The notes beneath the pieces were generated by a model. The model had not been told where the DNA came from and did no database searches. It worked only from the letters and a program-made list of their open reading frames with translations. Shown here piece after piece: positions 2,769 through 62,641 of a stretch of DNA of 64,000 nucleotides; the first letter of the stretch is position 1, and each line of letters starts with the position of its first letter. Source of the stretch: an uncultured Candidatus Saccharibacteria bacterium (GTDB taxonomy: Bacteria; Patescibacteriota; Minisyncoccia; Ryanbacterales; GWA2-47-10b); contig CAYHJF010000001.1 in assembly GCA_964356915.1 (NCBI GenBank), forward strand, positions 146,200 through 210,199. Direction: 5' to 3'. Both the position numbers and the translations under genes were made by a program.

Positions 2769-3101
2769 TTACTCGAATGGAGTTCTCGATGGAAGATCCG
2801 CTCCTGACCCTGCTAACACCTCTGCTCTATTCGCCAAAATCGCACGCACGTCATCAAGTAGCTTACGATTCAATCTCTTCACTCCCGGGTCAAGAGAAAG
2901 CTCGGTACCCGAAGGAAGAGGAGCCTCTGTGTGAAATAAAAACACGTATCCATCGTACGCCACAACGCCAACAAGCAATCCTCCAAGCACAATCAGAGAA
3001 AGGCGCCATAATAAGGAGCCGTGGACCAGAATATTTGTCTTTTGCGCGGAACTTTTCCGTCGCAACGAGAAATGCATTGAAATAGGAAGATTAAATTTCA
3101 T
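2769..3101 (-). CDS. hypothetical membrane protein, last gene of the pilus cluster (PilP-like by position only)
   Basis: Start overlaps the pilO-like stop by 4 nt. One TM helix (LSLIVLGGLLVGVVAY). No conserved motif recognised. Confidence 0.35.
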   Translation of the reverse strand: MKFNLPISMHFSLRRKSSAQKTNILVHGSLLWRLSLIVLGGLLVGVVAYDGYVFLFHTEAPLPSGTELSLDPGVKRLNRKLLDDVRAILANRAEVLAGSGADLPSRTPFE

Positions 3102-3607
3102 AGCGCTGCAATTGACATAGTAATCTGAGTTGAATTCGCAAGGATTGAAAGTTGGTTAATCGTTATAAAAAAGCGTTCATTTTCAAGCTCGCGGAGCATT
3201 CTAATAACATTTGTATAGGAACCATTAACTGTCAAACTTACGCCCACCTTCCCTGCCTCAAGTGCTCCTGGTGGAGTGATGGATACCTGCCCAAGATTGT
3301 TCCGCTTGATAATTTCATCGATAAATAAAACGAGCTCGAGTTCTTTTTTATCATCGTTCGCGATGAAAAATAAATTCTCAATCTTCGTAATATCTTTTTG
3401 CGCATCCTCATACTCTGGTAAAATTTGTCCGCGATATGCTCGTAACTCTTGTTCCGTTGTCCGAATCTCTTTTTCCATCTCAAAAAATTTATTTGATAAT
3501 GGAAAAATCTGGTAAAAAACAAGATACGCAAATACCGCACAAAGTGCCGCGTTTGCTAGCACGACACCCGCAGTCGTCAAAATAAATTTTTTCTGAATAG
3601 GCATCAT
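3098..3607 (-). CDS. pilO: type IV pilus assembly protein PilO-like
   Basis: N-terminal TM followed by coiled-coil (EKEIRTTEQELRAYRGQILP). Size and position after the pilN-like gene. 4-nt overlaps with neighbours. Confidence 0.5.
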   Translation of the reverse strand: MMPIQKKFILTTAGVVLANAALCAVFAYLVFYQIFPLSNKFFEMEKEIRTTEQELRAYRGQILPEYEDAQKDITKIENLFFIANDDKKELELVLFIDEIIKRNNLGQVSITPPGALEAGKVGVSLTVNGSYTNVIRMLRELENERFFITINQLSILANSTQITMSIAAL

Positions 3608-4152
3608 AACTGTATACGAAGCGTAAGATTAAAATCAGCGTTCTGCTCTTTTAAAATGTTTGTTACTGGGGAATCGTATGATTTTACCTTTGGATGAGCT
3701 TTGAGTGCATCAAAAAAGCTCAAAAAAGAGGAGCGCGTATTCGCAATGCCCGACAATTTGATTACACCTCCCGGCTTACCATCAACCTGCGCCCGATCAA
3801 GCTCAATACTCGTGAGATGAATATCGGAGCCAACTTTATTTATGATTTCTTCTAAAGATCTCATCACTGGTAACGTATCTTTCCCATACCCAGCAACATT
3901 TCGTAATAACGTATTTACTTTACCAAGTCGCTTTCCTGTCTCATCAAGCTCTTTAAATTCCTGACTTTTCTGAATCGATGAGAGGTAATCCTGTTTTGCG
4001 TCAAAACGAAATGTAAGGGCAAAAAATGAAGGTAACAAAAGTAAATCTCCCGCGAGTGCGACCACGCCAAAATAAAGTCCAAATGTAACAACATATCGCC
4101 GCCACGCCTCATACCGAAGTTCTTTTTTATATGAATCAGGAAGTAAGTTCAT
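3604..4152 (-). CDS. pilN: type IV pilus assembly protein PilN-like
   Basis: Short cytoplasmic N-terminus (MNLLPDSYKKELRYEAWRRY) then a TM then periplasmic domain, the classic PilN architecture. Immediately follows pilM. Confidence 0.55.
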   Translation of the reverse strand: MNLLPDSYKKELRYEAWRRYVVTFGLYFGVVALAGDLLLLPSFFALTFRFDAKQDYLSSIQKSQEFKELDETGKRLGKVNTLLRNVAGYGKDTLPVMRSLEEIINKVGSDIHLTSIELDRAQVDGKPGGVIKLSGIANTRSSFLSFFDALKAHPKVKSYDSPVTNILKEQNADFNLTLRIQL

Positions 4153-5219
4153 ACGATGTTGAGAGAAACAATATCACCGCCACGCAGTGCGAGACCAAAT
4201 GTAGTCGCATATCTCATAGTCTCGCGTGCCGTGATCGAAGGAATTTGTTTTTCAAGATTAAATATATTTTCCCAAATACGAGCTCGCTCAACTGGGATAC
4301 GAAGTTCTTGGGCGAGAAATTCTGGTAATCCATGCAGCAGGGCATCGCCTCCACATAAATACACGCGAGAAACCGGATCACGCTCCGGATATCGTCTCTC
4401 CCAAAAACCAATCTGGCGATCGGCCTCATCTTTCAGCGCAACGAGCGCGGGCGTCAGGCTCTTGATAATATCTTCGGACATTGCATCAAAACCTCTTCCA
4501 AACTTTACCTCTTTAGCCTGCTCGGGTGTTAGTTGAAGTGCGTTCATTAAAATCGCATCAATATCGCGCCCGCCAACTTTCACCGTAGAGGTAAAGTTCA
4601 CGGTACCCTCCGAGACAATAGAAAATGTCGTTCGCGTCTTACCAAGATCACCGACTAAAAAAACACCTTTGGTATTTCTTGGTACAACCGCGCGCGCGAT
4701 CGCCTGCGACTCAAGCTCGAAAACAAGCGGGAGAAAACCTGCTTTTTGGACTGCGTTCATATATGACTCGACTGTCGCTTTTGGATAGGCAGTGACAACA
4801 ACGTCCATTGTAGGACGACTACGCTCAGCGAGATCGAGGACTTGATAGTCAAAATACAAATCTGCTGGAGGGAATGGAATATGCTCTTCAAGCTGAAACT
4901 CAAGAGCTTGGCGTAACTCACCCAAAGGAATGCGCTGCGTGCGGATAAGTCGTAAAAATCCCTTTTCTTCAGGCAAAGATAAAATAAGATACGGGTCTCG
5001 AAGCTTTTTCTTTCCTCCAAAATTTTGAATGCGCTTTAATGCTTCACCAAGAGCAACTTCATCTTTGATCTCACCGGCATCAATAATACCTTTGGCGAGA
5101 GGTTCCTCTCCAAAAAATGTAACGTCTTGTTCATCCTTATGCTTATCAAGACGCAAATATTTAAATGATTCGTCAGAGATATCGAGGCCTATGACTGAAA
5201 ACAAAAACGGGTTTGCCAT
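4149..5219 (-). CDS. pilM: type IV pilus assembly protein PilM (actin-like ATPase fold)
   Basis: N-terminal IGLDISDESFKYLRL (actin/HSP70-like phosphate-1 motif as in PilM/FtsA), 356 aa, followed by pilN/pilO. Confidence 0.7.
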   Translation of the reverse strand: MANPFLFSVIGLDISDESFKYLRLDKHKDEQDVTFFGEEPLAKGIIDAGEIKDEVALGEALKRIQNFGGKKKLRDPYLILSLPEEKGFLRLIRTQRIPLGELRQALEFQLEEHIPFPPADLYFDYQVLDLAERSRPTMDVVVTAYPKATVESYMNAVQKAGFLPLVFELESQAIARAVVPRNTKGVFLVGDLGKTRTTFSIVSEGTVNFTSTVKVGGRDIDAILMNALQLTPEQAKEVKFGRGFDAMSEDIIKSLTPALVALKDEADRQIGFWERRYPERDPVSRVYLCGGDALLHGLPEFLAQELRIPVERARIWENIFNLEKQIPSITARETMRYATTFGLALRGGDIVSLNIV

Positions 5220-5240
5220 GCCCGTTTATTATATCGCACT

Positions 5241-7613
5241 TTATTCAATTTCGTGAAATTCTGTGATATCAAGATTTGCGGACGATGGAGTACAAGAAAG
5301 GCATGCCGCTCCCTTTCTGTACGTAAGAACACTCTTATCACGAATCTCAAGACCTGCCGCAACAACCTGACTCAAAAGAGGATTGTCATTAATTAGCAGC
5401 CTACCAAAGGGCACGAACACGGATCCTCGCAACTTCGCTATAGCTGGATTATCCATTGTAAAAACTTCATTTGAGCTCAATGTGTTGAATGAGTTCTGTA
5501 GAGAATATAGATATACATCGTCTTTATACGCCGGATTTCTTGTTAAGTAGGAATTTTTACATCCCGCGTATGAAGATGGATTACATCCGATAATTTCTGG
5601 GCCGGAGTTGGTGACACTTACCGTTCCATCAAAGAGAACTGCGGCAAAGACTGGATCTGGTGTCGTATTGCCAGGCTTATCGAGATAAATACCGCATTTC
5701 TGAGCCGACGTACAACTAATATTCGCCGCTCCAGTAAAGTAAAAGATGGGCTCCTGATTTGCTGGCACAGATAAGATTAGCTTGCCATTACCTGAGATGG
5801 TCAGGCTGCCATATTTGCCCGGCTGTATCGTAGTTGTCGCACTACCAGCAATACTAATATTTGTACCTTCGGCAACTGGCGTTGTTACATTGTAACCATC
5901 CGCTGTCGTCTTCCATGTCTTAATGAGTGTTTTTGGTGAATTACCATCTCCCTCAGGAGTAAATAACATTGGCAATATACCAGGACCTGACGCAAAAGGA
6001 CCTGTACCTGAAGCTGGCACCGTAGACGTCGCTGGCGCAGGATACGGAGAAGAGTTTACACACTCAGCAGCAACTGACATCGTATTGTCACAATATTTCT
6101 TACAATATGTAGTACTCGGAGATGGACCATCGGCACAATCCTGAGTTGCACCATAAGGCTGTGGAGGATAGCGCACATCGGTACGTGCATATCCATAGTG
6201 GAATGCTCCTGTTGTAGAGGCAAGCTGACCCGCATTACCTTCGACCTGCTGTGCCTTCAAAAGCCCGTCGGTTGCAGCAACACGTTGCGTATCCATCGAC
6301 ATAGAACGCGTGAGAAAGCGCGTATTACTTGCAGAATCTTTTGTCTCTTCTCCTTGAAAAATTTTAAACGCTATCGAGCGTGTTGATGTCAATGTATCCC
6401 AACCCGCAGCCTCTTGGCGTAGCTCGGCATCAACAGCAAATTTAAGTGCTGGCGCGTGCCATTCGGCAGTTCCATATGTTTGGTCAGGAGTTGAACCACA
6501 TGAATCTCCATAACATGCCGGATAATTAATATGATTCGGAATTGTAATTCCCTGCGGCACATACGAATTATTTTTTGACATAAATACCCAATGATTTGAA
6601 GCATCCCCGCCCGATCCTGTAAGCGAAAGAACTAACCAGTATTTTTCACCTTCAACCATTGGAAAGTCACTCGAATAATCAGTAAGAAAATCAAAACACT
6701 TCCACTCAAAATTAGTAGTCGCGTTGCTTGCATTCAGCGTCTTTAATTGATTTGTATGATATGAAGAATCATTCGCATCATATGGAGATCCTCCACGAGT
6801 AGCCGTACTCGATGCCACTGACGCCCCAACGGGATCATTGGGCTCAATTGTTAATTGTAACGCGGGAGGAGTTCCTACTTTTTTCAAATATACACACGCG
6901 CGCATCGCATATGCGGTAACAGCCGGAACAAAAGCCTGCGCCATATCTTTTTTACCTACAGTACCAAGCTTCACCGTAATAGAATCCCAGCTCGCCCAGT
7001 TATCCGATGGCTTATTTACACAGTTACCATTTTCTTTTGGATTGCATTGGGCCCACGTTGAGCTCGCGGCGATTGAATTCGCAACCATAATATCTCCGTA
7101 TACAACGGGAGCAGTGGCACCACTCGCATCAATCGTACTGTTTGAATAAAAAGTAGTAGACTCACCAATATTCACACTGCGAACAGTAGGGCTATCGTTT
7201 ACACGAACTGTCAAAAATCCTATTTGTGCGGCATTATTGAGATCGGGAAAACCGCCATCGAGAGATCCTCCATCAAAGACAATTCGCGCGCTTCGGTGAC
7301 GATTTGAAAGATTACTCCGTGATACAAGCGTGTATGGACCAGTTCCACTAATCGTCACGCTCGCCGTTGCGCTATTGAGCGTAACGCTCTCTGGAGTCGC
7401 ATATGTCTGCGTATTTTGAATACGAGATGCGACTTCTTCTATCCCAGACTCCGCAGTAATAAAACTCTTTTTTGCGTATGCAAGCTCACGAGCACGATTG
7501 AGCTCAGTCACCGCAATATATCCATATGCTCCAAGGATTAAAAGCGAGATAAAAAAGAAAAATAGCACTGCCATCAATGCTGCCTGTCCTTTGGTATATA
7601 AAATCTTATTCAT
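5241..7613 (-). CDS. large (790 aa) pilus-associated extracellular protein with N-terminal pilin-like TM anchor; candidate tip adhesin or GspK/PilX-like minor pilin
   Basis: N-terminus KGQAALMAVLFFFFISLLILGAY resembles a prepilin leader without Glu5 (as in GspK-type minor pilins). The rest is S/T/N/G-rich with many Cys pairs. Sits between pilin genes and pilM. Confidence 0.4.
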   Translation of the reverse strand: MNKILYTKGQAALMAVLFFFFISLLILGAYGYIAVTELNRARELAYAKKSFITAESGIEEVASRIQNTQTYATPESVTLNSATASVTISGTGPYTLVSRSNLSNRHRSARIVFDGGSLDGGFPDLNNAAQIGFLTVRVNDSPTVRSVNIGESTTFYSNSTIDASGATAPVVYGDIMVANSIAASSTWAQCNPKENGNCVNKPSDNWASWDSITVKLGTVGKKDMAQAFVPAVTAYAMRACVYLKKVGTPPALQLTIEPNDPVGASVASSTATRGGSPYDANDSSYHTNQLKTLNASNATTNFEWKCFDFLTDYSSDFPMVEGEKYWLVLSLTGSGGDASNHWVFMSKNNSYVPQGITIPNHINYPACYGDSCGSTPDQTYGTAEWHAPALKFAVDAELRQEAAGWDTLTSTRSIAFKIFQGEETKDSASNTRFLTRSMSMDTQRVAATDGLLKAQQVEGNAGQLASTTGAFHYGYARTDVRYPPQPYGATQDCADGPSPSTTYCKKYCDNTMSVAAECVNSSPYPAPATSTVPASGTGPFASGPGILPMLFTPEGDGNSPKTLIKTWKTTADGYNVTTPVAEGTNISIAGSATTTIQPGKYGSLTISGNGKLILSVPANQEPIFYFTGAANISCTSAQKCGIYLDKPGNTTPDPVFAAVLFDGTVSVTNSGPEIIGCNPSSYAGCKNSYLTRNPAYKDDVYLYSLQNSFNTLSSNEVFTMDNPAIAKLRGSVFVPFGRLLINDNPLLSQVVAAGLEIRDKSVLTYRKGAACLSCTPSSANLDITEFHEIE

Positions 7614-7619
7614 AGATAC

Positions 7620-8120
7620 TTAGTAACTCCCTCGTAGAATCGCAAGTGCAGAATACGATCGCGTTACGTAATATTTTCCACGACCAGACTCTACGGTCAT
7701 TGTAACTCGAATACCATTTGAAACCGTACCGCTCAACTGATCAAAATCAAACGCGGTAACTGTTACATCCGGAGCTGTTAGATCGGCACCTGCAATCGTT
7801 ATTTTATTTGAAGCGTATGCAATCGTACGCGACGTACCTCCAGGACATGCAGTTGCACTTGAAAAATCAGCGAACGTATCAAGCGTAATACTCGTTCCGC
7901 TAAACGTGGTGACACTACATGCGAGGCGCAACTCGCGCACAATCCGCTCAAGAGCAGTATCTGCAGCTTCCGCAACTCGTTGCTCGCTTCGTGCCTTACC
8001 ATATGTCTGTGAAAGCTGGACGATACTAAAGGCAACAAAAACAATAGTCATCGTTAGTATTGCGATGTAAACCACAAGCTCCATCAACGTTGTCCCTCGC
8101 TTCATCATATTAGTTGCCAA
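7620..8120 (-). CDS. type IV pilin-like protein (prepilin N-terminal motif)
   Basis: MKRG|TTLMELVVYIAIL: G-x-x-x-E5 class III signal followed by a hydrophobic helix. Confidence 0.6.
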   Translation of the reverse strand: MATNMMKRGTTLMELVVYIAILTMTIVFVAFSIVQLSQTYGKARSEQRVAEAADTALERIVRELRLACSVTTFSGTSITLDTFADFSSATACPGGTSRTIAYASNKITIAGADLTAPDVTVTAFDFDQLSGTVSNGIRVTMTVESGRGKYYVTRSYSALAILRGSY

Positions 8121-8616
8121 AAAGATCTGCGATATAAAAATCGACTGACTCCGTAAACTGATCCCACGAAGCCGTCACTGTGACACGTTTTGTATCCGAA
8201 TCGAGCGTACTCCCCGAGCAGACTCCCGTCGTAACGCCAACGATATCACCCGTAGAACTATTCCGACATACATCCTGTATATTCATCGCGACTTTAACAT
8301 TGGCGGTGATCGCCGTTGGGCACGGGGAAGTCGCGGTCAGCACATATGCCCCCGCGACATACGTAAGACAATAATTTGGTGTTGTAGAAAGCGTAAGAGC
8401 TGGCGATGCAATATTCGCCGTCCAACCCGAATCTCGCCTATATCGCATCGCCTCTACCGCCTCTTCCAAAATAAATAATGCCTGCGTGCGGCGTGCGGCA
8501 CGTGTTACTGATCGATCAGCAAGAATTACCGCTCCATAAATTGTTGAAAAAGATGCCGCCAATACTCCAAGAGCGACGATAAGTTCTACAATCGAAAATC
8601 CGCGACTTCGATGCAT
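8110..8616 (-). CDS. type IV pilin-like protein
   Basis: RG|FSIVELIVALGVL canonical prepilin cleavage/methylation motif. Confidence 0.65.
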   Translation of the reverse strand: MHRSRGFSIVELIVALGVLAASFSTIYGAVILADRSVTRAARRTQALFILEEAVEAMRYRRDSGWTANIASPALTLSTTPNYCLTYVAGAYVLTATSPCPTAITANVKVAMNIQDVCRNSSTGDIVGVTTGVCSGSTLDSDTKRVTVTASWDQFTESVDFYIADLFGN

Positions 8617-8625
8617 GATTCTATT

Positions 8626-9207
8626 TTACGGTAATGTAGCAATGACGCCAGTAGGACGCACTGTAATAATGCGTGTATCGTTGATGCGCTCAGCCGTAAA
8701 CTGCACGAGCACACCATTTGGAGAGGTCGGAGAACACGTAGCAACGGCAGCAACACTCTGAAGCGCGTTTCCCGCAGTCCTTCGCTCTGCCTCACCAGTT
8801 ATTCGTTTAAAATAAATCTCTGGACGGGGGTCTGGCTGTGTATTCCCCGATATACAAATAACACTCATTGTGACTTCGCCCGGTATCGTATATGTTTCCT
8901 CTACCGTTAATGTCTGCGGAGCGCCTGTAGAATATTGAAAAAGTCTAATCTCTTTTGTCGCTGAATCAAAATGAATTCCGTATTGTGTCCCTGTACTTGT
9001 GCTGTCCTGTGAGGCGAGCGTTCTACTGCGCGCCTTCCCAAGCATGGCATATGTAGTCTCCGCGGCAGCGTTAAGTCCTTGGCGAGCCACAAATCGAGAA
9101 TATACCCCAACGAGTAGAGAAGAAATGACGGCCATAACAACTACAACAATAACAAGCTCGAGCATCGCAATACCTCGCTTTTGATTAAATCGCGCTCGAT
9201 ATTCCAT
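8626..9207 (-). CDS. type IV pilin (candidate major pilin)
   Basis: KRG|IAMLELVIVVVVMAVI prepilin motif. First pilin gene after pilC. Confidence 0.65.
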   Translation of the reverse strand: MEYRARFNQKRGIAMLELVIVVVVMAVISSLLVGVYSRFVARQGLNAAAETTYAMLGKARSRTLASQDSTSTGTQYGIHFDSATKEIRLFQYSTGAPQTLTVEETYTIPGEVTMSVICISGNTQPDPRPEIYFKRITGEAERRTAGNALQSVAAVATCSPTSPNGVLVQFTAERINDTRIITVRPTGVIATLP

Positions 9208-10426
9208 ACATTGGCTGAATCATTGAAACCGCGAAGAATCCGACAAATCCTCCAATCACAACCATCAACAAAGGCTCAATAACCGTTGAAAGATTACTCG
9301 TTGCATCCGATACCTGCCCCTCGTAGAAAAGAGCGACCTCGTTAAGCATCTTTGAACTCTCACCTGTCTCTTCTCCGACTGCGAGCATCTCACCCATCAG
9401 TGATGGATAGAGATGTTCATATTTCAAAAAAACTTTCGATATTGTCTCTCCTTTCTGAATGGAACTTTTTGCTTCCTGTAAAATGCTTGAGTACAAATGA
9501 TTTTGTATGATACGCGAGGTAATATCGAGCGCCTCGAGTACCTGTACGCCCGATGAAATCAAAGACGCGAGCGTACGCGCAGTACGAGCTGCATTAAATT
9601 TTTTCGCGATAGGTCCTATGATCGGAGCACGCACCGTAAAATTATCTATCAGATTTTTTCCTTGTTTCGTATGTACACCATATCGCACAGCAAAGACAGT
9701 CCCCACAAACCCAACAAGAGCCAAAAATCCGTGATTCTGCAAAAACTTCGATGTATTAATAATGAGCTGGGTACTAAACGGTAAATCAATCTTTAAATCT
9801 TCAAACACTTGAGTGAGTGTTGGCACGACATAAATCATCATCAACACGCCAATCAAAATCATGGCGCAGATAACAATTAATGGATACATCATGGCGCCGC
9901 GTATTTTCCGACGCAAATCATAATCAGACTGCATTTGAGTCGCGAGCACAGTCAATGCCTCTCGGAGCTGCCCGGACTTTTCACCCGCCTCTACCATCGC
10001 TGTATATAATGGAGGAAATACATCCGCATGAGTCCCAAGTGATTCAGAAAACGTCTTACCCTTGCGTACCTGTTCAACTACATCAGCAACTACTTCTTTA
10101 TAATGTGGATTTTGAGATTCGCGGGAGAGCGCCTCTAGCGCGCGTGTAAGCGGCAACCCCGCACCAATCATAACCCCAAGATTTTTTGAAAAAAGAATCT
10201 TGTCGATTAATTTAATGCGATTAAATATATTGAGAACGCGCTTGGAAAGCTGTGCTTGAGCTTGGTTAACGGCACTCTTACTCGATCCATCGGACTCCGA
10301 AGCAGAGAGGAGCATAAAGCCCTCTTGGCGAAGAACGCGAGCAAGCTCAAATCGATCACTCGCATCACGAACTCCCATCACCTCCTGTCCTTCCCGATCT
10401 CGAGATTTGTAATTAAAACGTGCCAT
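9185..10426 (-). CDS. pilC: type IV pilus assembly platform protein PilC (GspF family)
   Basis: Two GspF-type repeats (KNLGVMIGAGLPLTRALEAL ... SLMGEMLAVGEETGES) and three TM segments. 413 aa. Confidence 0.8.
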   Translation of the reverse strand: MARFNYKSRDREGQEVMGVRDASDRFELARVLRQEGFMLLSASESDGSSKSAVNQAQAQLSKRVLNIFNRIKLIDKILFSKNLGVMIGAGLPLTRALEALSRESQNPHYKEVVADVVEQVRKGKTFSESLGTHADVFPPLYTAMVEAGEKSGQLREALTVLATQMQSDYDLRRKIRGAMMYPLIVICAMILIGVLMMIYVVPTLTQVFEDLKIDLPFSTQLIINTSKFLQNHGFLALVGFVGTVFAVRYGVHTKQGKNLIDNFTVRAPIIGPIAKKFNAARTARTLASLISSGVQVLEALDITSRIIQNHLYSSILQEAKSSIQKGETISKVFLKYEHLYPSLMGEMLAVGEETGESSKMLNEVALFYEGQVSDATSNLSTVIEPLLMVVIGGFVGFFAVSMIQPMYGISSAI

Positions 10427-10485
10427 GCAAAAAGTCGTATTACTTACTATAGTAACACGACTTTTTGTAGATACGATGAATATCT

Positions 10486-12243
10486 TTACTCTTGAGTAAC
10501 TCGGAGCACCTCTTCAATTGTAGTCCTTCCTTCGGCTGCCTTAAAAATACCATCTTCAAGCATCGTCATCATGCCAGTCTTACGCGCGAGCGTATCAATA
10601 TCAGCCGCTGATGCATTTTTAATAACCATTTCTTTAATCGCCGGCGTCACTTGCAACACCTCATGAATGCTAATACGCCCTTGATATCCATCTGGTACAT
10701 CGGGCGTTGGCTCAGGAACGTAAAATGTTATATCTTCGAGCTGATCTTTTGGCCCGATAATTTTCTCAGTTCGTAAAAATTTCAACATGCGCTCAACATC
10801 AATAATATGCTCGAGCTGCGTAATCTCATCTTTATTTAGTTTATGTGGTTTCTTTGATTTATACAGTGTGCGAACAAGACGCTGAGCAATAATCACATTG
10901 ACTGTAGATGAAATTAAAAATGGCTCAACACCAAGATCAATGAGACGAGGAAGGGCGCCTGCGGCAGAATTAGTATGCAGCGTTGAAACAACGAGGTGAC
11001 CGGTGAGGGCAGCGTTAATCGCAAGATTGGCAGTCTCAGTATCACGAATCTCACCAACCATGATGATATCGGGGTCTTGGCGCAGTAACGATCGAAGTCC
11101 GTTTGCAAACGTAAACCCAATATCGGGACGAATCTGCGATTGATTCACGCGTTGCATACGATACTCGATCGGATCCTCAACGGTAGAGATATTAACCTCT
11201 GCGGAATTTAGTAAATCAAGCACCGTATATAGTGTTGTCGTCTTACCAGATCCCGTAGGCCCCGTAGCAAGAATCATGCCAACTGTTCGTTGGATATTTC
11301 TATGCAATGCCTCGAGCCCCTCGCCATGAAACCCCAGCGATTCAAGTGTAAAGCCCTGTGAATTTTCAGGGAGCAAACGCATAACAATTTTTTCACCATC
11401 ATAGACGGGAAGAACGGAAACACGAAAAGAGATCTTATACTCTGCCGTGTCTATCTTAAAACGTCCGTCTTGCGGCAAACGCTTTTCATCAAGTTTAAGT
11501 CCTGCGAGCACTTTTACGCGCGCAACGATCGCGGGAGCAACTTTTTTTGGTAATACCATCGCATCACGCAAAATACCGTCAATACGATATCGTACGACGA
11601 GTTCATTTTCAAATGGCTCGATATGAATATCAGAAACTTTTTGTAAAATCGCGTGCCGCACAAGCGTATCCACGATTTTTACAATCGGGAGTTCTTCGGC
11701 AATTTTCTTAAGATCAATCTCTCCCGCTTCCGTAGCCTCATCCGTCTTTACTCCAGCCGCGGTCAATAACTCGCTGTCACCTTTGATAATCTCGCCAAAT
11801 TCTACCTCGAGACTTTTTTGGTAAAGCGACAACAAATACTTCATTGACGCATCACTTGTTAACCGCGGCTTGATATCGAGATCGGCCTTTTTGCGGATAA
11901 ATTCGATCGTCTCCAAATCCTCCGGATCAAGCATTGCGACTTCGAGACTTCTTCCTTCCTTCTTATACGCCACCACATTATGCGTACGAGCAATCGGCTC
12001 TGGGATGATCTGAAGAACGATTGGATCAACCTTCTCACCCTCAAGACTGACAAAAGGAATGCCTAAAATATAACTTTGAAGCCGCCCAAGATCTTTTGCC
12101 GAAAGCTTTCCTTCTGTAACAAGAACGTCACCTGCGCGCTTATGTTCTGTCTCCGCTTTTTTGAGTGCAGCATCAATATCAGGTTCTGAAACAAGACCTG
12201 TATCAAGCAGAAAGGATTTAAATTGCTTCGGATCTATCCTCAT
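10486..12243 (-). CDS. pilB: type IV pilus assembly ATPase PilB (GspE family)
   Basis: N-terminal GSPII_E_N-like region. Walker A GPTGSGKTTTLY. Asp box and His box (VGEIRDTETA ... LVVSTLHTNSAAG). 585 aa. Confidence 0.85.
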   Translation of the reverse strand: MRIDPKQFKSFLLDTGLVSEPDIDAALKKAETEHKRAGDVLVTEGKLSAKDLGRLQSYILGIPFVSLEGEKVDPIVLQIIPEPIARTHNVVAYKKEGRSLEVAMLDPEDLETIEFIRKKADLDIKPRLTSDASMKYLLSLYQKSLEVEFGEIIKGDSELLTAAGVKTDEATEAGEIDLKKIAEELPIVKIVDTLVRHAILQKVSDIHIEPFENELVVRYRIDGILRDAMVLPKKVAPAIVARVKVLAGLKLDEKRLPQDGRFKIDTAEYKISFRVSVLPVYDGEKIVMRLLPENSQGFTLESLGFHGEGLEALHRNIQRTVGMILATGPTGSGKTTTLYTVLDLLNSAEVNISTVEDPIEYRMQRVNQSQIRPDIGFTFANGLRSLLRQDPDIIMVGEIRDTETANLAINAALTGHLVVSTLHTNSAAGALPRLIDLGVEPFLISSTVNVIIAQRLVRTLYKSKKPHKLNKDEITQLEHIIDVERMLKFLRTEKIIGPKDQLEDITFYVPEPTPDVPDGYQGRISIHEVLQVTPAIKEMVIKNASAADIDTLARKTGMMTMLEDGIFKAAEGRTTIEEVLRVTQE

Positions 12244-26217: not shown

Positions 26218-27894
26218 CTAGTTGCAACCAAGTCCTTCATCGGTTGCACCATCACAATCATTGTCGAGGTGATCGCAACCAAACAAAGATTCGGGCTGAG
26301 ACGCAATGTCTGGGTTACAGAACAAGTAATGAGTAGGATTTGATGTAACACACACCGCATGTCCAACCGCACACTGACCAAGTTGGCCAGTATTGCAGGT
26401 CTGTCCACCTTGAGGATTCCCCTCGTCGACGGAGCCGTCACAATCATTGTCGATATTGTCACAAAGTTCGCTCGCTGCTTGCGCGGGGATGCACGCACCC
26501 CATGCGTTATTCGAGCACGTCTGTGTGCCGTTACGACATGCGCCAACAGCGCCGGAAGCGGTACACGCCCGTTGCTGACCGTTGCTACATACGAGCAACG
26601 TAGTCGACGTTGTCGTACTCGTCGAAGTCGTAGTCGATGACGTGCTCGAAGTTGTTGAAGTCGAGGTAGTCGTCGATGACGATGTCGTTGAGGTTGACGT
26701 AGTTGAAGTGGTTGTACTAGTCGAGGTCGACGTTGTCGTAGGCCTTGATGTACTCGTCGTGGTCGATGTAGACGTTGTAGACGTGGATGTAGTCGTCGTA
26801 CTTGTGGTGGTAGTTGTTGAAGTCGTACTCACCCTAGTAGTTGACGTTGTCGTACTCGTCGAAGTCGTAGTCGATGACGTGCTCGAAGTTGTTGAAGTCG
26901 AGGTAGTCGTCGATGACGATGTCGTTGAGGTTGACGTAGCGATAACTCCACGACACACATTCGGATACGACTTAAACTGCGGTACCGCAAGGATATCCGT
27001 GCAGTCAATCTTGAAATCAGCAACGCACTGAACGCACGTTGCCATATCGAGCATCCCGCCAATAGAGCGGGCGCAAATCTGACCATTTGGTCGTACTACA
27101 TCGGTACAAGTTGAAATGAATCCAACTTGTACGGGCGTAAAGTCGGTCGGATCTTCAGGAAATCCGCAGCGACGATCAGCGCCGCCACACGCCTGACAAA
27201 TCTTCTCGAGCATACGCTCTCGTTGAACTGCAACTAAACGGTCGGCTGCTCCATCGCCAGGCAAATGACAGTCAGTACTATGTGTACCGGCAATACGATT
27301 TGTCCAGCATGTTGAGAGCACTTTCGCCTTCTTACGTTGAAAGGCAACGGCATACTTGAGATTCGCACGCTGACACTTGAGTACTGCGGCCGTAGGATTT
27401 GGCTGCAATGCGTCAGCATAAAGATCGACTGACTGATCAACTGCGATCTTCCCAATACAGGAAAGGCAGTGGTATACGTCATCAAAATTGTTAATGGAGT
27501 TATCACAGCCCCTGTTTTCGAAATCAGGACACTGACTCCCCCACCCAATATCACTAGGCGCGACATCATTAACCCCATCACAATCGCCATCGCAGCACTG
27601 CGATCGAATATTGCGATGAAGACGAATATCACGCCTTGCGAGCCGACGCGATTGAGCCGGATCTGTCACACAGTCGATTCCCCAAGGCAGATAACCCCTG
27701 AGCCTCTTATCCTCGCATGACAGCTGATCGCGAAGACGACCATCTACATATGCGGCAAAACCCTTACTAAGGGTAGTTTGACACGTATTCATATTGGAAG
27801 CGGATACTGGCGCAGCAAATATCGACGCCGAGAGAAAAACAAACAATGCGATTGCTCGCATGAGACTCCTTCCATTTCTTGCCCTAAATTTCAA
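26218..27894 (-). CDS. secreted Cys-rich protein with a roughly 150-aa mucin-like Ser/Thr low-complexity region
   Basis: Signal peptide (MRAIALFVFLSASIFAAPVSA). Cys-rich N- and C-terminal domains (CxxxxC, DNDCDG repeats). Central TSTSTTSSSTTT... tract encoded by tandemly repeated DNA. Confidence 0.55.
   Translation of the reverse strand: MKFRARNGRSLMRAIALFVFLSASIFAAPVSASNMNTCQTTLSKGFAAYVDGRLRDQLSCEDKRLRGYLPWGIDCVTDPAQSRRLARRDIRLHRNIRSQCCDGDCDGVNDVAPSDIGWGSQCPDFENRGCDNSINNFDDVYHCLSCIGKIAVDQSVDLYADALQPNPTAAVLKCQRANLKYAVAFQRKKAKVLSTCWTNRIAGTHSTDCHLPGDGAADRLVAVQRERMLEKICQACGGADRRCGFPEDPTDFTPVQVGFISTCTDVVRPNGQICARSIGGMLDMATCVQCVADFKIDCTDILAVPQFKSYPNVCRGVIATSTSTTSSSTTTSTSTTSSTSSTTTSTSTTTSTTRVSTTSTTTTTSTTTTSTSTTSTSTTTSTSRPTTTSTSTSTTTSTTSTSTTSSSTTTSTSTTSSTSSTTTSTSTTTSTTLLVCSNGQQRACTASGAVGACRNGTQTCSNNAWGACIPAQAASELCDNIDNDCDGSVDEGNPQGGQTCNTGQLGQCAVGHAVCVTSNPTHYLFCNPDIASQPESLFGCDHLDNDCDGATDEGLGCN
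26596..26940. repeat. tandem DNA repeat (unit about 242 bp, two copies with roughly 100-bp exact identity) inside the S/T-rich coding region
   Basis: gtcgtactcgtcgaagtcgtagtcgatgacgtgctcgaagttgttgaagtcgaggtagtcgtcgatgacgatgtcgttgaggttgacgtag occurs at 26609-26700 and again at 26849-26940. Confidence 0.7.
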
Positions 27895-28135
27895 GGGGCG
27901 CTAGAGCTGAAACTACAATAAAATTAGAAAAAAATCAAGTATCACAAACAAAAAAAATACCCGCGGCTACGGCAAAAAAATCTTAGAACAAGATCTAAAA
28001 CAAAAGATTAAGTAGTTTTTTCGAAAAAACCTGAGAATCTTAGACCAAAAACATCCACCCCTAATACTCGATACTCTGCGCAGAGTATCAATAAACTCTC
28101 ACAAAGCACTAAATCAATTGCACGCCACGTTTTTG

Positions 28136-28206
28136 TCGGAGAGCCGGGAATCGAACCCGGTCTACCTGCTCCCAAAGCAGGTGTACTGCCGGTATACTAC
28201 TCTCCG
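28136..28206 (-). tRNA. tRNA-Pro (anticodon TGG), no encoded CCA
   Basis: rc = CGGAGAGTAGTATACCGGCAGTACACCTGCTTTGGGAGCAGGTAGACCGGGTTCGATTCCCGGCTCTCCGA. Anticodon stem cctgc/gcagg, loop ttTGGga. D arm nearly identical to tRNA-Pro(GGG) at 1024. Confidence 0.7.
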
Positions 28207-28216
28207 TTTTGAAAAC

Positions 28217-28937
28217 AATTTCACGTGAAATTGTTTTCACGTGAAATCATGCATCAAGCATAACATTTTCAATATGCTTGATTATAGCGGTATTTCTTAA
28301 AAAATCTAATAAAACACTGAAAACATCTACCTGCCAATCATTTTCTATATTTTTCTCTATTAAATAAGCTTCTATTACTCGCAAAAGATTTCTCTGCTTG
28401 TGAAAATGAACGTTGTCTTCCGGTCTATAATCATCATAATTGCTGTTTTCACGTGAAATTTCAATTTTTAACTTTTTATTTGTGAAACTATATCGTGAAA
28501 ATATACGTGAAACAATGTTTTGGTCTTTTTTATCTATTTCACGTGAAATAGTTCTTGATTTAACCTCTATAAAATGAATTATTCCGTCTTTTTGAGCGAC
28601 TATATCAATCTCGCCAATCTTTCTTAGATAATTTCGATCAAGGACGGTAAAGCCAGACCTCTCAATATAGCGAACCACTGTATCTTCCGCGATATTACCA
28701 ATTCGTCTATTTTTACTGTATTTCTCTTTATCAGACATTTATAAAAGACATTTATACACAGAAACAGGCCTTTATACATGGGTTATTAACAGATATAGCT
28801 GAAATGTTATTAAACAGACATTGCTTATAAAAGACACTATATAAGACAATTGCACTTGTGGGGTAGAAAAGTAATTCTATGACTTTTCCCTGTTCTCTCT
28901 TTCACGTGAAATTGAAACGCTAGACTTTCACGTGAAA
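28217..28937. repeat. seven copies of the 12-bp perfect palindrome TTTCACGTGAAA (one split into half-sites) over about 720 bp
   Basis: Copies at about 28218, 28234, 28448, 28491/28503 (half-sites), 28537, 28899 and 28925. Two lie just 3-prime of the nuclease gene stop, three lie inside its coding sequence (encoding ISRE twice), and two lie upstream. Confidence 0.75.
28247..28738 (-). CDS. YraN/UPF0102-family endonuclease-like protein (163 aa; longer than the usual roughly 120 aa)
   Basis: RRIGNIAEDTVVRYIERSGFTVLDRNYLRKIGEIDIVAQKDGIIHFIEVKSR matches the YraN pattern (GxxGE..A...L...G..IL.RN.R...GEIDIIA...L.FVEVK.R). The C-terminal half carries insertions encoded by the palindrome copies. Confidence 0.55.
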   Translation of the reverse strand: MSDKEKYSKNRRIGNIAEDTVVRYIERSGFTVLDRNYLRKIGEIDIVAQKDGIIHFIEVKSRTISREIDKKDQNIVSRIFSRYSFTNKKLKIEISRENSNYDDYRPEDNVHFHKQRNLLRVIEAYLIEKNIENDWQVDVFSVLLDFLRNTAIIKHIENVMLDA

Positions 28938-29048
28938 CCGCCTATCGGATAAATCTTATCAATCCTGATGAGATCTACTGCTTTATCGACATGTACTGCA
29001 TTTATAAAATGCTTGTAACGCTCTAAAGCTTCGAATACTTATTTGTTG

Positions 29049-33578: not shown

Positions 33579-35045
33579 TTATTTCACCCAATGTTTTTTC
33601 TTGATCTCTCCTACCTTTTCTTCTTCGAGAGCCGATGACTTATTCTTTGCTTCTTTTGCTAAATTTGCAAGTTCTGAATCAGAGAGAGAAACGAGCTCAT
33701 TGAGACGTTCTGTAAGATATTTTTTTGTATTACGCTTTGGATCATCAAGCACTTCTTCGAGGAGCGCGTTGAGAAGCATTCCTATGCGCGGCCCTGGATC
33801 AAGCTTTCCAATCTTCATAACCGCATCTCCATTAATTTTTAGCATCTTCACTGAGATGGGATCGCGTGAAAGTTTTTCGATAAGAAAACGAAAGTGACGC
33901 AACTTATAAGGCTCTGCCTTAGGTACGCCTGATCCGATCCGATCGCACACACGAACCTTGATCAAGTCTTCCATATTTTCTGGACCAACTTTTCTAATAA
34001 GACGCCTCACCGATCCTTCGCCAACCTCATCCACGTTGTAGTAAAAAAGATGAAACCGAACAAGAGTCGTTACCTTTGCGACTAATTCACTCGGATACTT
34101 CAAACGCTTGAGGATTTCTTCTGTCATTGTCCCACCGACAATTTCATGCCCATAAAACGTAGAGTCTGGACCGTCTCCACGCTTTGCCCGCGGTTTACCA
34201 ACGTCATGTAACAAAGCGGCGAGCCGTACATCGAGCGCCCAATGCTTTGACGCCGCATGACGCAACGCGTATAGATTGTGCTCCCATACAGAAAAAATAT
34301 GATGCTTGTTTTGCCCCACAGCAAACCCCTCTTCGAGTTCTGGCATTACATATTTTAAAACACCGAGTTCACGCATCCGATCTAAAACCACATGCGGCTC
34401 CGGAGACATAATAATTTTTGAAAATTCATCTCGAATACGTTCCTGAGAAATAAATCTCAAAAGCTTTGCTTCTTTTTTTATCGCGGCCTCTGTCTCTGGC
34501 TCAAGTGAAAATCCGAGCTCAGCGACCAAACGAAGTGCTCGCATAATACGTAGCGCGTCTTCTTTAAATCGCTCGACTGGTTTTCCAACCGCACGTAAGA
34601 TACCTTCTTTAAAATCTTTTTTTCCGTTAAATAAATCTATCACTTCATCCGTTCGTACATTGAGCGCCACGGCATTGATAGTAAAATCGCGACGAGCAAG
34701 ATCATCCTTGAGAGATTTCCCAAATTCAACTTTATCCGGATGACGCTTATCAGAGTACTTTGATTCTGTGCGATAAGGTGTTACCTCAACCATCTTCAGT
34801 GATTCGTCAGAGACATTTTTAGGAAATATGGCAACGGTGCCAAAATCATTTTCATAAACACTGTCAGGAAATATTTTTTGAATTTCTGACGGTGTCGCGC
34901 TCGTCGTAATATCCCAATCCTTTGGTTTGCGCCCTATTAAAAGATCTCTCACGCATCCGCCAACGATATACGCTTCAAAATGAGCGGCTTCAAGTGCTTC
35001 TATAACAGCGACTATTTCTTTAGGAATCGGAGCTTGTTTAGACAT
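33579..35045 (-). CDS. cca: CCA-adding tRNA nucleotidyltransferase with C-terminal HD domain
   Basis: Pol-beta-like head (FEAYIVGGCVRDLLIGRKPKDWDITT), RRDFTINA, HD motif (LAALLHDVGKP). 488 aa. Consistent with tRNAs lacking an encoded CCA. Confidence 0.8.
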   Translation of the reverse strand: MSKQAPIPKEIVAVIEALEAAHFEAYIVGGCVRDLLIGRKPKDWDITTSATPSEIQKIFPDSVYENDFGTVAIFPKNVSDESLKMVEVTPYRTESKYSDKRHPDKVEFGKSLKDDLARRDFTINAVALNVRTDEVIDLFNGKKDFKEGILRAVGKPVERFKEDALRIMRALRLVAELGFSLEPETEAAIKKEAKLLRFISQERIRDEFSKIIMSPEPHVVLDRMRELGVLKYVMPELEEGFAVGQNKHHIFSVWEHNLYALRHAASKHWALDVRLAALLHDVGKPRAKRGDGPDSTFYGHEIVGGTMTEEILKRLKYPSELVAKVTTLVRFHLFYYNVDEVGEGSVRRLIRKVGPENMEDLIKVRVCDRIGSGVPKAEPYKLRHFRFLIEKLSRDPISVKMLKINGDAVMKIGKLDPGPRIGMLLNALLEEVLDDPKRNTKKYLTERLNELVSLSDSELANLAKEAKNKSSALEEEKVGEIKKKHWVK

Positions 35046-45643: not shown

Positions 45644-47164
45644 ATGTCGAGCACTCTTGTATCCGGACAGGTCGTAGGTCTGAAAGGCGTTCGCATTGAT
45701 GTTGAGATCGATCTTTTACCCGGACTTCATCGTTTTACAATCGTTGGACTTCCTGACAAAGCAACTGAAGAAGCGCGTGAACGAGTATCCGCAGCGATTA
45801 AAAACTCTAACTTTCGTCCTCCCCAAAAGAAAAATCACCGTATCACCGTAAATCTCGCGCCGGCAGATCTCCCCAAAGAAGGCGCCTTATTTGATATACC
45901 GATCGCGCTCGGATATCTACGTGAATCTGAACAGTTAAAATTTGACCCGCAAGGAAAATTTTTCGTAGGAGAGCTCGCACTCGATGGTACCGTACGACCT
46001 GTGCGTGGCATACTACCTCTCGCTATCGCGGCTCGTGATTTTGGATGCACGGAGCTTTTTATCCCAAAAGAAAACGTACCTGAAGCATCTTTGATTGATG
46101 GGATTTCTATCTTTGAAGTCTCGACGTTGCGCGCGCTTACTGATCACCTCACAGGAACAGCACCCATCACACCAACAGCTCATAGAAAATTTGTACCAAC
46201 TCCTCATGAAACACGACATGATTTTCATGACATTAAAGGGCAAGAATTCGCGAAGCGAGGATTAGAAATCGCGGCAGCGGGAAATCATCATGTCGCATTT
46301 ATTGGACCCCCAGGAACAGGTAAGACACTCCTCGCGCGAGCGCTAGCCTCTGTTTTGCCACCGCTTTCTTTTAAGGAAGCTCTTGAAATCACATCAATCC
46401 ATAGTATTGCAGGCTCACTCGGACAAGGAGTCATGAGTACTCGTCCTTATCGTAGCCCACACCATACAACATCCTACGTCGCCCTCATTGGAGGTGGAAC
46501 AATTCCAAAGCCAGGAGAGATCACTCTCGCCCATAAAGGAGTACTATTCCTTGATGAATTTCCTGAATTTGAGCGACGTGTCATTGAAACGCTTCGCGAA
46601 CCACTCGAGGAGCGCTCGGTCACCGTCTCACGCGCCAAAGGTTCAATGAATTTCCCTGCTGACATCATGCTTGTTGCAGCAATGAATCCGTGTCCGTGCG
46701 GGAATCGCGGGTCTCAAAAAGAATGCGTCTGCGCGCCTCGAGATCTTCTGCGCTATTCAAGAAAAATATCTGGCCCAATCATTGATCGTATTGATATTTG
46801 GCTCACAATGTCTCCCGTAGACTATAAAAAATTGGAAGAAAAATCTTCCGGAGAATCTTCCACCCTCATACGAAAACGTGTTGAGAAAGCACGTTTACTC
46901 CAACAAAAACGTTTTTCAAAAACTACAATCTCCACAAACAGTCAGATGGGCATTAAAGAACTTAAAACATTCGCCTCTCTCGGCGAAGATGAGCAACAAT
47001 TACTCGAAGTTGCGGCAAAAAAACTCGACCTCTCCGCACGAGCATACCATCGAGTTATTAAGGTTGCGCGCACAATCGCAGATCTTGAAAACTCAAAGAC
47101 GATTAAAAAGGAACACCTTTTGGAAGCTCTTCGCTATAGACCACACCTTGAGACCCTTGAGTAA
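45644..47164 (+). CDS. comM: YifB/ComM-family Mg-chelatase-like AAA+ ATPase
   Basis: N-terminal Lon-protease-like domain. Walker A GPPGTGKT, Walker B LFLDEF. C-terminal Mg-chelatase ChlI domain and Cys cluster (CPCGNRGSQKECVC). 506 aa. Confidence 0.8.
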   Translation: MSSTLVSGQVVGLKGVRIDVEIDLLPGLHRFTIVGLPDKATEEARERVSAAIKNSNFRPPQKKNHRITVNLAPADLPKEGALFDIPIALGYLRESEQLKFDPQGKFFVGELALDGTVRPVRGILPLAIAARDFGCTELFIPKENVPEASLIDGISIFEVSTLRALTDHLTGTAPITPTAHRKFVPTPHETRHDFHDIKGQEFAKRGLEIAAAGNHHVAFIGPPGTGKTLLARALASVLPPLSFKEALEITSIHSIAGSLGQGVMSTRPYRSPHHTTSYVALIGGGTIPKPGEITLAHKGVLFLDEFPEFERRVIETLREPLEERSVTVSRAKGSMNFPADIMLVAAMNPCPCGNRGSQKECVCAPRDLLRYSRKISGPIIDRIDIWLTMSPVDYKKLEEKSSGESSTLIRKRVEKARLLQQKRFSKTTISTNSQMGIKELKTFASLGEDEQQLLEVAAKKLDLSARAYHRVIKVARTIADLENSKTIKKEHLLEALRYRPHLETLE

Positions 47165-52972: not shown

Positions 52973-53878
52973 TTGCACAGGATTGAGTGGTATAATAATA
53001 GCGGTGAAAAATATTCACCAACCACTTTGAGTTACATGCCTTCGAAAAAAATTCTTTTTGCCATCACCCTTGCTCTCACCATTATCGGTGGTACTGTTTT
53101 TGTCTCTAATCACAACGAAAGTCAAAAGAATATCATCCCAAAGCATGAGGCGGCGCTAAAAGCAGAGGTTATTCGTTCAGGAAAAGATTGGCAAAACACA
53201 CTTTCCGATAATCAATCCTTAAGCGGAAAGCAATTTACAACAAACCCCGAACAGAATCTCTTTGAAAACCTGGTACGCGGATATGGAGAAACGGTTATTT
53301 CAAACCAAACAACCAACCTCTCACAAGAATCGCTCCAAAATATTGCGGACGCCGTTGCGGCTGATGCTGACCTATCGGTAAAGGCAAATAAAAACCCTTA
53401 CTCCGCGACCGACGTAATGGTAGATCAGAAAGAAACGGTGAAAGAATACTTTAATAATGTTGCTCGCATAAGTAAGAAGTATTTTCCCGACAACTCAAAC
53501 AATGAAATTCTCGTAATAGGCAAAGCAGCCGCGACCAAACAAGTACAGACATTAGCAGAAGAGTTACAGTCTCATCATTATAGTTATAGCCAAGTAGCAA
53601 AAGAACTTGCTCGCGTTCATGTTCCACCGGAAGCGGTTGAAGTACATGTGGCATTTCTCAACTCATTTGCAAATGTTGCGCTCGCGATAGATGAAATTAG
53701 CGCGTTTAGCAGGAAAGACCCCCTCACTGGAGTACTTGGAATGGAAAACTACAAACTTGAACTTATTGAAGTCCCAAAAATATTTGCAAAAGCAAAGGCA
53801 CTAGCTCAAGCAAATCACATCGTATTTGCATCCGATGAGCCTGGGTACGAACTTCAAAAATATTTTGACAAAATATGA
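52973..53878 (+). CDS. hypothetical membrane-anchored protein (first gene of the secretion-system operon)
   Basis: TM (ILFAITLALTIIGGTVFV). True start possibly the internal Met at 53036. 4-nt overlap with the next gene. Confidence 0.35.
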   Translation: MHRIEWYNNSGEKYSPTTLSYMPSKKILFAITLALTIIGGTVFVSNHNESQKNIIPKHEAALKAEVIRSGKDWQNTLSDNQSLSGKQFTTNPEQNLFENLVRGYGETVISNQTTNLSQESLQNIADAVAADADLSVKANKNPYSATDVMVDQKETVKEYFNNVARISKKYFPDNSNNEILVIGKAAATKQVQTLAEELQSHHYSYSQVAKELARVHVPPEAVEVHVAFLNSFANVALAIDEISAFSRKDPLTGVLGMENYKLELIEVPKIFAKAKALAQANHIVFASDEPGYELQKYFDKI

Positions 53879-54867
53879 TCTCTAAACGCTACCAAAAAAT
53901 TATTGCGACATCTCTCCTTTTACTTTTGGTACACGCGGAGATTGCGCTCGCTGTCGTACCAACATGGGATGTAGGATTGAACGGACCTCCTCCAACTTTA
54001 AGTTTGGGTAACTACGGGATTCTCACTGCTCAAAGCGGTTGGGATGTAAGTAAAGAAAAGCAAATTGTTCTTCCGAGCCTTGATCTTTCCTCTATTGGAA
54101 GTTTTGCCTCAAGTGTTGCTGACGCGGCAGCATCTGCGGCATCAAACCTTATTCCTTCATGGGATAATATTATGTGGTATTTAACCCGCCTGATTGTGCA
54201 AGAATTGAAAAAAGAAGTCATTAGCTGGGCACAAGGAGGATTTCAAGGCGGGCCATCATTTATTGAGAACCCTGAACGATTTTTCACGAATGTGGGAGAC
54301 CAAGCATCTGCAATATTTATGGAAGAATTGGGCACTCGACTGACGGGAAATCCAAATTTTCTCTGTGAAGATTTCTCGTTCCAAATTCAACTCGCACTCC
54401 CCGGATATGGTAAATATGAAACACGCGCGGGATGTACAATCAACAAAGCAACCGAAAACTTTAAAAACATGTCGCAACACTTTGATAACTTTGAGAAAGG
54501 CGGATGGAAATCATTCGTTAATATCTCTCAAGAACAAAATAATTTTGGTGGGGCATACATGATGACATTTGATGCACGAAACGCTGCGATCAACCAGGCG
54601 ATTGGGAATCGCGCAGCAGCAGCTGGGTGGTCACAAGGATATCTTGGATCAGAAAATTGCCCTCCTGGCGCGCGAACACAATATGGGTGTCGAGGCTTTA
54701 AAGTCCAAACCCCTGGGAAACTTATCGGTGACCGTGTCGCACAAGCAGTGGGTACCGACTTTGAATCAGTTATCACCGCCGATGAGGTGGGGGAGGTGAT
54801 ACAAGTTCTTATCGATATGGCGATACAAAAGGTTGTTACCGATCTCGCGAATGGAGATAACGAATAA
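53875..54867 (+). CDS. hypothetical secreted protein (signal peptide)
   Basis: MISKRYQKIIATSLLLLLVHAEIALA signal peptide. Translationally coupled on both sides. Confidence 0.35.
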   Translation: MISKRYQKIIATSLLLLLVHAEIALAVVPTWDVGLNGPPPTLSLGNYGILTAQSGWDVSKEKQIVLPSLDLSSIGSFASSVADAAASAASNLIPSWDNIMWYLTRLIVQELKKEVISWAQGGFQGGPSFIENPERFFTNVGDQASAIFMEELGTRLTGNPNFLCEDFSFQIQLALPGYGKYETRAGCTINKATENFKNMSQHFDNFEKGGWKSFVNISQEQNNFGGAYMMTFDARNAAINQAIGNRAAAAGWSQGYLGSENCPPGARTQYGCRGFKVQTPGKLIGDRVAQAVGTDFESVITADEVGEVIQVLIDMAIQKVVTDLANGDNE

Positions 54868-54869
54868 TT

Positions 54870-57401: not shown

Positions 57402-57406
57402 ATATT

Positions 57407-57994: not shown

Positions 57995-58002
57995 TATTTC
58001 CC

Positions 58003-59087: not shown

Positions 59088-59091
59088 TTAT

Positions 59092-60909: not shown

Positions 60910-60912
60910 TGT

Positions 60913-61431: not shown

Positions 61432-61459
61432 CGATGCCAGGAACGTTATAATAAAAGAA

Positions 61460-62638: not shown

Positions 62639-62641
62639 ATT

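Follow-up and report, generated by a model that had tools for sequence, protein, structure and literature searches.

A dense cluster of candidate chromosomal parS sites centred on, and partly encoded within, yraN in a member of the Paceibacteria

The chromosomal parS site, to which ParB/Spo0J binds, has the consensus tGTTTCACGTGAAACa and is idealised as TGTTTCAC-GTGAAACA; published consensus sequences include TGTTNCACGTGAAACA in B. subtilis and C. glutamicum, GTTTCACGTGAAAC in M. smegmatis and TGTTTCACGTGAAACA in H. neptunium. This palindromic element is conserved across very distant bacteria and is present as a few clustered copies near the origin, and copies can lie inside genes, for example in spo0J of B. 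subtilis. Here we describe a similar element in a 64-kb stretch of DNA (hereafter the window) from an uncultured member of the Paceibacteria (contig CAYHJF010000001.1, positions 146,200 to 210,199), in which the 12-bp perfect palindrome TTTCACGTGAAA is repeated in and around the nuclease gene yraN. On sequence grounds, this palindrome is identical to the invariant 12-bp core of canonical parS, and we propose that its six copies are very probably chromosomal parS, that is, candidate ParB sites that together make up a densely packed partition locus around yraN, close to the origin. We base this proposal on the exact core, the proximity to the origin, the conserved positions of the sites in relatives and the selection at the level of DNA.

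A search of the window located six exact copies of TTTCACGTGAAA, at 28219, 28235, 28447, 28537, 28900 and 28926, all confined to 28219-28937 (0.72 kb); an earlier note on this DNA had counted seven. As that note had maintained, no further copy was found in the rest of the window, even with one mismatch allowed, and the chance expectation lies far below one: base composition predicted 0.005 exact copies, and 100 dinucleotide-preserving shuffles, with one mismatch allowed, gave a mean of 0.33 matches and in no case reached six. The DNA read around the cluster amounted to 84 kb, comprising the window and a 10-kb extension at each end, with a 21-kb stretch (L086) at the right edge, and the palindrome was not seen as a generic repeat anywhere in these 84 kb. 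In addition, no other parS-like 16-mer (up to three mismatches) was present in the window or in L086; therefore, the cluster has no parS-like counterpart in these 84 kb near the origin. The sites, the gene and its bounding tRNA genes are arranged as follows.

28135..28206, minus strand: tRNA-Pro(TGG) (ARAGORN, Rfam), directly downstream of yraN; the pairing is syntenic in relatives
28219..28230, unstranded: parS-like site 1 (12-bp core), 12/16 positions against TGTTTCACGTGAAACA, 12 nt upstream of the tRNA-Pro 5' end
28235..28246, unstranded: parS-like site 2, 12/16, adjoining the yraN stop codon (28247-28249)
28247..28738, minus strand: yraN (UPF0102 PD-(D/E)xK nuclease), 163 aa, Pfam PF02021
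28447..28458, unstranded: parS-like site 3, in yraN, 12/16, in-frame peptide I94-S95-R96-E97
28482..28513, minus strand: three direct half-parS heptamers, GTTTCAC at 28507-28513, TTTTCAC at 28495-28501 and GTTTCAC at 28482-28488
28537..28548, unstranded: parS-like site 4, in yraN, 14/16, 16-mer TATTTCACGTGAAATA (28535-28550), in-frame peptide I64-S65-R66-E67
28900..28911, unstranded: parS-like site 5, 13/16, 162 nt upstream of the yraN start codon
28926..28937, unstranded: parS-like site 6, 13/16, 188 nt upstream of the yraN start codon
29048..29119, minus strand: tRNA-Ala(CGC) (ARAGORN, Rfam), the upstream boundary of the segment

The 12-bp parS core was exact in all six copies, and the enclosing 16-mers matched the parS consensus at 12-14 of 16 positions, the outer positions being weaker than in canonical sites. 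When TTTCACGTGAAA was used in a full-text literature search, nearly all of the 20 papers listed, out of 30 matches, concerned ParB-parS. The earlier note had named no described system that matches; canonical parS is such a system, the motif being its core, and none of the four explanations put forward there (selfish miniature element, autoregulatory operator, nuclease recognition site, CACGTG-based restriction) fits best. The binding sites of LexA, Rex, CRP/FNR and CodY, LacI-type operators and DnaA boxes were rejected because the order of their half-sites did not match.

The Noc-binding site (NBS) of the Bacillota, TATTTCCC-GGGAAATA, resembles several copies in the window that carry A beside the core (ATTTCAC...GTGAAAT), and the site 4 16-mer is a parS/NBS hybrid at the core-adjacent position. 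However, the NBS is centred on CCC/GGG, whereas the centre of all six window copies is the parS-type CAC/GTG; without a CCC/GGG centre in any copy, an identity with the NBS was rejected. To our knowledge, Noc is restricted to the Bacillota, where it marks the whole chromosome bar the terminus and not one origin-proximal cluster. Half-parS heptamer sequences are known from Pseudomonas aeruginosa, and the GTTTCAC elements in yraN are likewise one parS arm without its partner arm. Those of P. aeruginosa are numerous and dispersed, whereas the window has three direct copies located between full sites, inside an open reading frame and conserved among relatives. Binding of P. aeruginosa ParB to half-parS is described in two reports (PMC10419367; 10.1101/280743).

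We addressed the conservation of the motif in a comparison set that consisted of the DNA of two insert-bearing homologues and 80 species-representative genomes and that yielded 83 related Paceibacteria loci (L numbers below). In these loci, the exact motif occurred 0.63 times per kb at yraN (from 300 nt upstream to 100 nt past the gene end) compared with 0.007 times per kb in the 10-kb flanks, a difference of ~88-fold. The usual layout consists of tRNA-Arg/tRNA-Gly, a site 20-200 nt upstream of yraN, a site ~165-230 nt into the gene and tRNA-Pro(TGG). In relatives with YraN identities of only 40-50%, the motif occupies the positions that it has in the window, namely ahead of yraN, within the gene, and between it and tRNA-Pro, and the homologue loci L001 and L003 carry the sites in the window's own layout. 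Among 84 non-redundant loci including the window, the window had the highest number of exact sites per yraN locus (six), the median being zero exact sites, or one with up to one mismatch. The non-coding copies in 77 other Paceibacteria loci give tGTTTCACGTGAAAC, and the coding copies share this consensus.

The in-gene copies were examined codon by codon. Site 4 corresponds by homology to the EVK[ST]-V-S-x-E site within most Paceibacteria yraN genes, and there GTT was used in 32 of 33 genes (background 39%), TCA in 23 of 33 (background 26%) and GAA in 31 of 33 (background 64%). The residue x is R, Y, C or H, specified by CGT, TAT, TGT or CAT, codons that differ solely in the central dinucleotide of the palindrome. 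The frame xTT-TCA-CGT-GAA (xSRE) accounted for 48 of the 54 copies within yraN, and the third frame would hold TGA. This biased codon usage shows selection on the DNA, not on the peptide, at the in-gene site. Orthologues that carry the peptide without palindromic DNA were not seen; conservation is stronger in the DNA motif than in its translation. A symmetric centre variant, TTTCATATGAAA (CATATG for CACGTG, with the peptide V-S-Y-E-T), was observed in several lineages in both coding and non-coding positions: in-gene in L009, L029, L032, L058, L064, L065, L067 and L075, and upstream in L011, L012, L017, L022, L037, L048 and L076. The variant and the CG form are not cleanly exclusive within one genome.

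The length of the conserved stretch bears on a further explanation, in which the palindromes are recognition sites of a CACGTG-specific restriction-modification system or nuclease, with YraN as the nuclease. CACGTG is indeed a type II restriction site and YraN has the PD-(D/E)xK fold, but conservation spans 12-14 bp and not 6, no methyltransferase adjoins yraN, and outside the cluster CACGTG occurs just four times in the window, never with TTT/AAA flanks. YraN is, moreover, a near-universal housekeeping nuclease with a described role alongside ComM. We therefore regard this explanation as exceedingly improbable.

Alternatively, a transcription factor, possibly YraN itself, might use the palindromes as operators and repress yraN and the tRNA genes through looping between upstream, intragenic and downstream sites. 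A dimeric DNA-binding protein would be well served by a perfect palindrome, sites both ahead of and within the gene are reminiscent of looped operators, and the copies that relatives carry in or near cca and xth resemble a small regulon. Yet the sequence is identical to the parS consensus of ParB across bacteria, which makes an operator unnecessary, and sites are maintained within open reading frames and past the end of the gene, positions at which an operator could do little. YraN is reported to be a single-stranded DNA endonuclease that acts with the ComM helicase in the resolution of transformation D-loops, a role that argues against YraN as the reader of the palindromes, as it is not described as a sequence-specific duplex binder; a ComM homologue is present in the window at 45644-47164. 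As for cca and xth, they are simply origin-proximal in the genomes concerned. Taken together, these points render an operator function quite improbable. The sites in question (up to one mismatch) lie in cca near yraN in L027 (6888-8360), L010 (8348-9823) and L046 (7605-9125), with up to four per gene, and in the exonuclease III gene xth near yraN in L012 (8643-9413) and L048 (8775-9560), and mostly read V-S-R-E-T or V-S-R-D. A tRNA-maturation regulon of yraN, cca and xth was rejected, because the window's own cca (33579-35045) has no copy of the motif and these genes are mere neighbours of the origin-proximal locus.

The candidate parS sites have also left their mark on the protein. The sole credible gene of the segment (28247-28738, minus strand) was assigned to YraN/UPF0102 in the earlier note, an assignment borne out by the PF02021 match (E = 1.6e-17; score 64 bits, cutoff 23.6), which is split in two by an insert. 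NCBIfam equivalog scores for YraN fell below their cutoffs (84 against 111), which is to be expected with such an insert. The catalytic D45 and E58-V59-K60 were invariant in 27 homologues. The insert spans residues ~61-103 (window ~28430-28558) and is made of parS and half-parS sites; its DNA consists of a full parS, ~27 nt, three direct NTTTCAC half-sites, ~22 nt and a second full parS. The half-sites are 12-13 nt apart and encode V76-S-R, F80-S-R and S84-F-T. Thus, where three in-frame copies of the palindrome had been claimed, there are two (I64-S-R-E67 and I94-S-R-E97) with three half-sites between them. This layout is kept in the window and its five closest loci (L001, L003, L005, L006 and L007). 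The insert is lineage-specific, being shared by only ~18 homologues of 158-176 aa, and many shorter Paceibacteria YraN proteins are without it. The palindromes do account for the extra residues of YraN, as had been noted, but these number ~30-35 relative to most relatives (119-148 aa) and not ~40.

Several features of the insert suggest how it may have arisen. It is clear of the conserved catalytic residues, and in an AlphaFold2 model the core of YraN had a predicted local distance difference test score of 83-94 compared with only 47-59 for residues ~64-105. The parS sequence has one benign frame, (V/I/L/F)-S-R-E-(T/N/I), and therefore in-frame copies could accumulate inside yraN; extra parS copies would then build up in the gene as an in-frame insert. 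We infer that the ~35 extra residues are probably a tolerated by-product of the multiplication of DNA sites and not a functional protein module.

An in-frame insert between two palindromes, several identical short inverted repeats and the lower G+C content of this 2-kb bin (0.39) might also be expected of a miniature inverted-repeat transposable element (MITE)-like selfish element, or of an inserted islet, that had colonised the gene and its flanks. Highly iterated palindromes, repetitive extragenic palindromes and MITEs are likewise short perfect palindromes that are repeated, with some copies in genes. However, those elements are dispersed genome-wide in hundreds of copies, whereas the motif of the window sits at one conserved locus with no copies elsewhere in the 84 kb, and no transposase is present. 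The internal layout is conserved among proteins that are only ~50% identical, which points to purifying selection and not to recent insertion. Gene order is conserved across the class as well; the earlier note had described an islet between two tRNA genes, and although tRNA-Pro(TGG) and tRNA-Ala(CGC) do bound the segment, the order tRNA - yraN - tRNA-Pro(TGG) is conserved across the Paceibacteria, so that the segment is not an inserted islet. A mobile origin for the palindromes is accordingly most improbable.

The copies downstream of the gene raise the possibility that the palindromes act as RNA hairpins in a tRNA-Ala / yraN / tRNA-Pro transcript, serving as terminators, processing sites or stabilisers. 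The tandem sites 1 and 2 after the yraN stop codon fold into a 16-bp stem (-19.8 kcal/mol, z = -3.9) that is followed by the U-rich UUGUUUUC. Such a hairpin is an expected by-product, because any two nearby copies of the palindrome will pair; one copy alone gives only a 4-5 bp A/U-rich stem, and most relatives have single copies per position. In addition, a terminator scan was empty and Rfam matched the tRNAs alone. This function thus appears very improbable. Site 1 is also the centre of a 30-bp perfect palindrome at 28210-28239.

The position of the candidate parS cluster relative to the origin was assessed from gene content, GC skew and DnaA boxes. Beyond the right edge of the window, L086 carries jag-yidC-rnpA and then dnaA-dnaN. 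The start of dnaA corresponds to window coordinate ~66483, which places it 37.5 kb away from the cluster. GC skew was negative across the whole window and monotonic through 28 kb, and in L086 it changed from -0.069 before dnaA to +0.016 after it. With the skew monotonic at 28 kb and flipping at dnaA, the placement of oriC at the palindrome cluster itself was rejected for this genome. Two degenerate DnaA boxes are present in the segment.

28752..28760, unstranded: degenerate DnaA box TTATACACA, 8/9, just upstream of the yraN start
28983..28991, unstranded: second degenerate DnaA box, 8/9

In relatives, the picture is different, as the 300 nt preceding yraN contain the perfect DnaA box TGTGGATAA in 48 of the 84 loci (50 boxes, a 37-fold enrichment). 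These boxes lie 20-300 nt upstream of yraN (L005-L084; for example, ~9786-9830 in L020), and TGTGGATAA is often the first box of a triple array, TGTGGATAA-N3-TGTGGATAg-N2-GTTGATAAAGGACA. For 14 of 37 loci, the cumulative GC skew reached its minimum 228-1200 nt ahead of yraN, a stretch in which no maxima were found; dnaA was within 10 kb of yraN in one locus alone (L067). These DnaA-box arrays and GC-skew minima suggest that oriC lies beside yraN, and not beside dnaA, in many Paceibacteria. The box at 28752-28760 looks like a remnant of the perfect array that relatives carry at this position. Given that the DnaA boxes by yraN are degenerate and that the skew switches at dnaA, the locus appears to have been separated from the origin in this sub-clade. 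Directly after the DnaA boxes, relatives have ATAAAGGACA and the palindrome AAAGACAGTCTTT. In the window, a second repeated word is present upstream of yraN (28739-28870), with TTATAAAAGACA at 28739 and 28825 and related copies (AAAAGACATTTATACA and similar).

Several observations weigh against the interpretation of the cluster as parS. Canonical parS has a G beside the core, a base tied to R173 of ParB, which is conserved in all extant ParB orthologues; in the clade with the insert, this core-adjacent G is not conserved, being present in only 5 of 26 non-coding half-sites compared with 66 of 92 in other Paceibacteria (p = 2e-6). Six sites packed into 0.72 kb are also far denser than known chromosomal clusters, and the two full and three half sites that form an in-frame protein insert are a further departure from chromosomal parS. 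Finally, a cognate parB was not located in the DNA read. By tblastn with Spo0J, Soj and DnaA as queries (the B. subtilis Spo0J query was confirmed authentic at 100% identity), neither parB nor parA was detected in the window or its flanking loci L085-L090, nor in the 10 kb on either side of yraN in any of the 83 loci, the single match across loci being dnaA in L067, and a regular-expression search of the same DNA for the GERRxRA motif gave no match. The 10-kb extensions at both ends of the window yielded dnaA but not parB. A database search with a ParB profile returned Bacillus and Caulobacter proteins alone and was uninformative for this lineage.

The departure from G means either that the sites are weak one by one, with their number making up for it, or that the ParB of the clade reads this base differently. 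The altered core-adjacent base has a possible precedent, as an R173Q change in ParB switches recognition to adenine at this position. By analogy with R173Q on the path from ParB to Noc, the cluster might be a remodelled centromere, in which the ParB of the clade has an altered or relaxed core-adjacent readout and weak sites are offset by their number; the loci of the insert clade have four to seven sites each. We consider such remodelling possible but rather unlikely; more remotely still, the sites might be read by a protein that is not a canonical ParB.

With respect to the candidate parS sites and their cognate proteins, we take COG1475 to be the Spo0J/ParB family and COG1192 to be Soj/ParA. 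The core-gene table of Nelson and Stegen (PMC4508563, supplementary table 1) has COG1475 for 13 and SMC for 14 of its 17 Parcubacteria genomes, and COG1192 is absent from the supplementary files of PMC4508563 that were searched. A ParB-SMC system without ParA exists in Streptococcus pneumoniae. Since COG1475 and SMC are listed and COG1192 is not, a similar ParA-less ParB-SMC system is plausible in this group by analogy with S. pneumoniae. Apart from this table, the searchable literature contained nothing relevant on ParB/parS or chromosome segregation in Patescibacteria, the Candidate Phyla Radiation (CPR) or Parcubacteria. From established ParB biology, ParB dimers would nucleate on the full parS sites, close as CTP-dependent clamps and slide onto the flanking DNA; ParB would then load SMC and, if ParA is present, engage it, thereby segregating the origin regions. 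Weak additional ParB contacts may come from the three half-sites, following the precedent of P. aeruginosa.

Other features of the neighbourhood were recorded. A type IV secretion-like cluster (TrbL, PrgI, TraC-like, TraG-like ATPase, T4SS pilin) adjoins jag-yidC-rnpA-dnaA (window 52973-63856 and L086 1-12030), a type IV pilus / type II secretion-like cluster (PilM, T2SSF) is located at 3098-12243, and a 558-aa protein with long Ser/Thr repeats is encoded at 26218-27894. In sample ERZ1292624, from the same population, contigs of 109 kb and 32.7 kb end at ~29142 and begin at ~29186, respectively (window coordinates, by tRNA-Ala), and in two other samples yraN is on contigs of ~2 kb; because contigs of other samples end there, the yraN locus is an assembly break-point.

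Taken together, an apparently unexplained repeat is resolved as what is very probably an ordinary and important element, a chromosome partition site. As such, the locus is a known kind of element, an origin-proximal parS cluster, in an unusually dense and partly protein-coding arrangement; it stands out for the extreme density of its sites and for the conserved in-frame array of them by which a protein is extended. It provides a clear case in which a DNA-binding motif dictates protein sequence, as the R/Y/C/H residue tracks the centre of the palindrome and an insert of 35 residues consists of binding sites, and it cautions against reading lineage-specific protein inserts as functional protein modules. 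For the Paceibacteria, a group of the CPR, the conserved parS locus at yraN and, as a second landmark, the probable oriC beside yraN rather than dnaA in many members are the first concrete landmarks of chromosome organisation found in the searchable literature.

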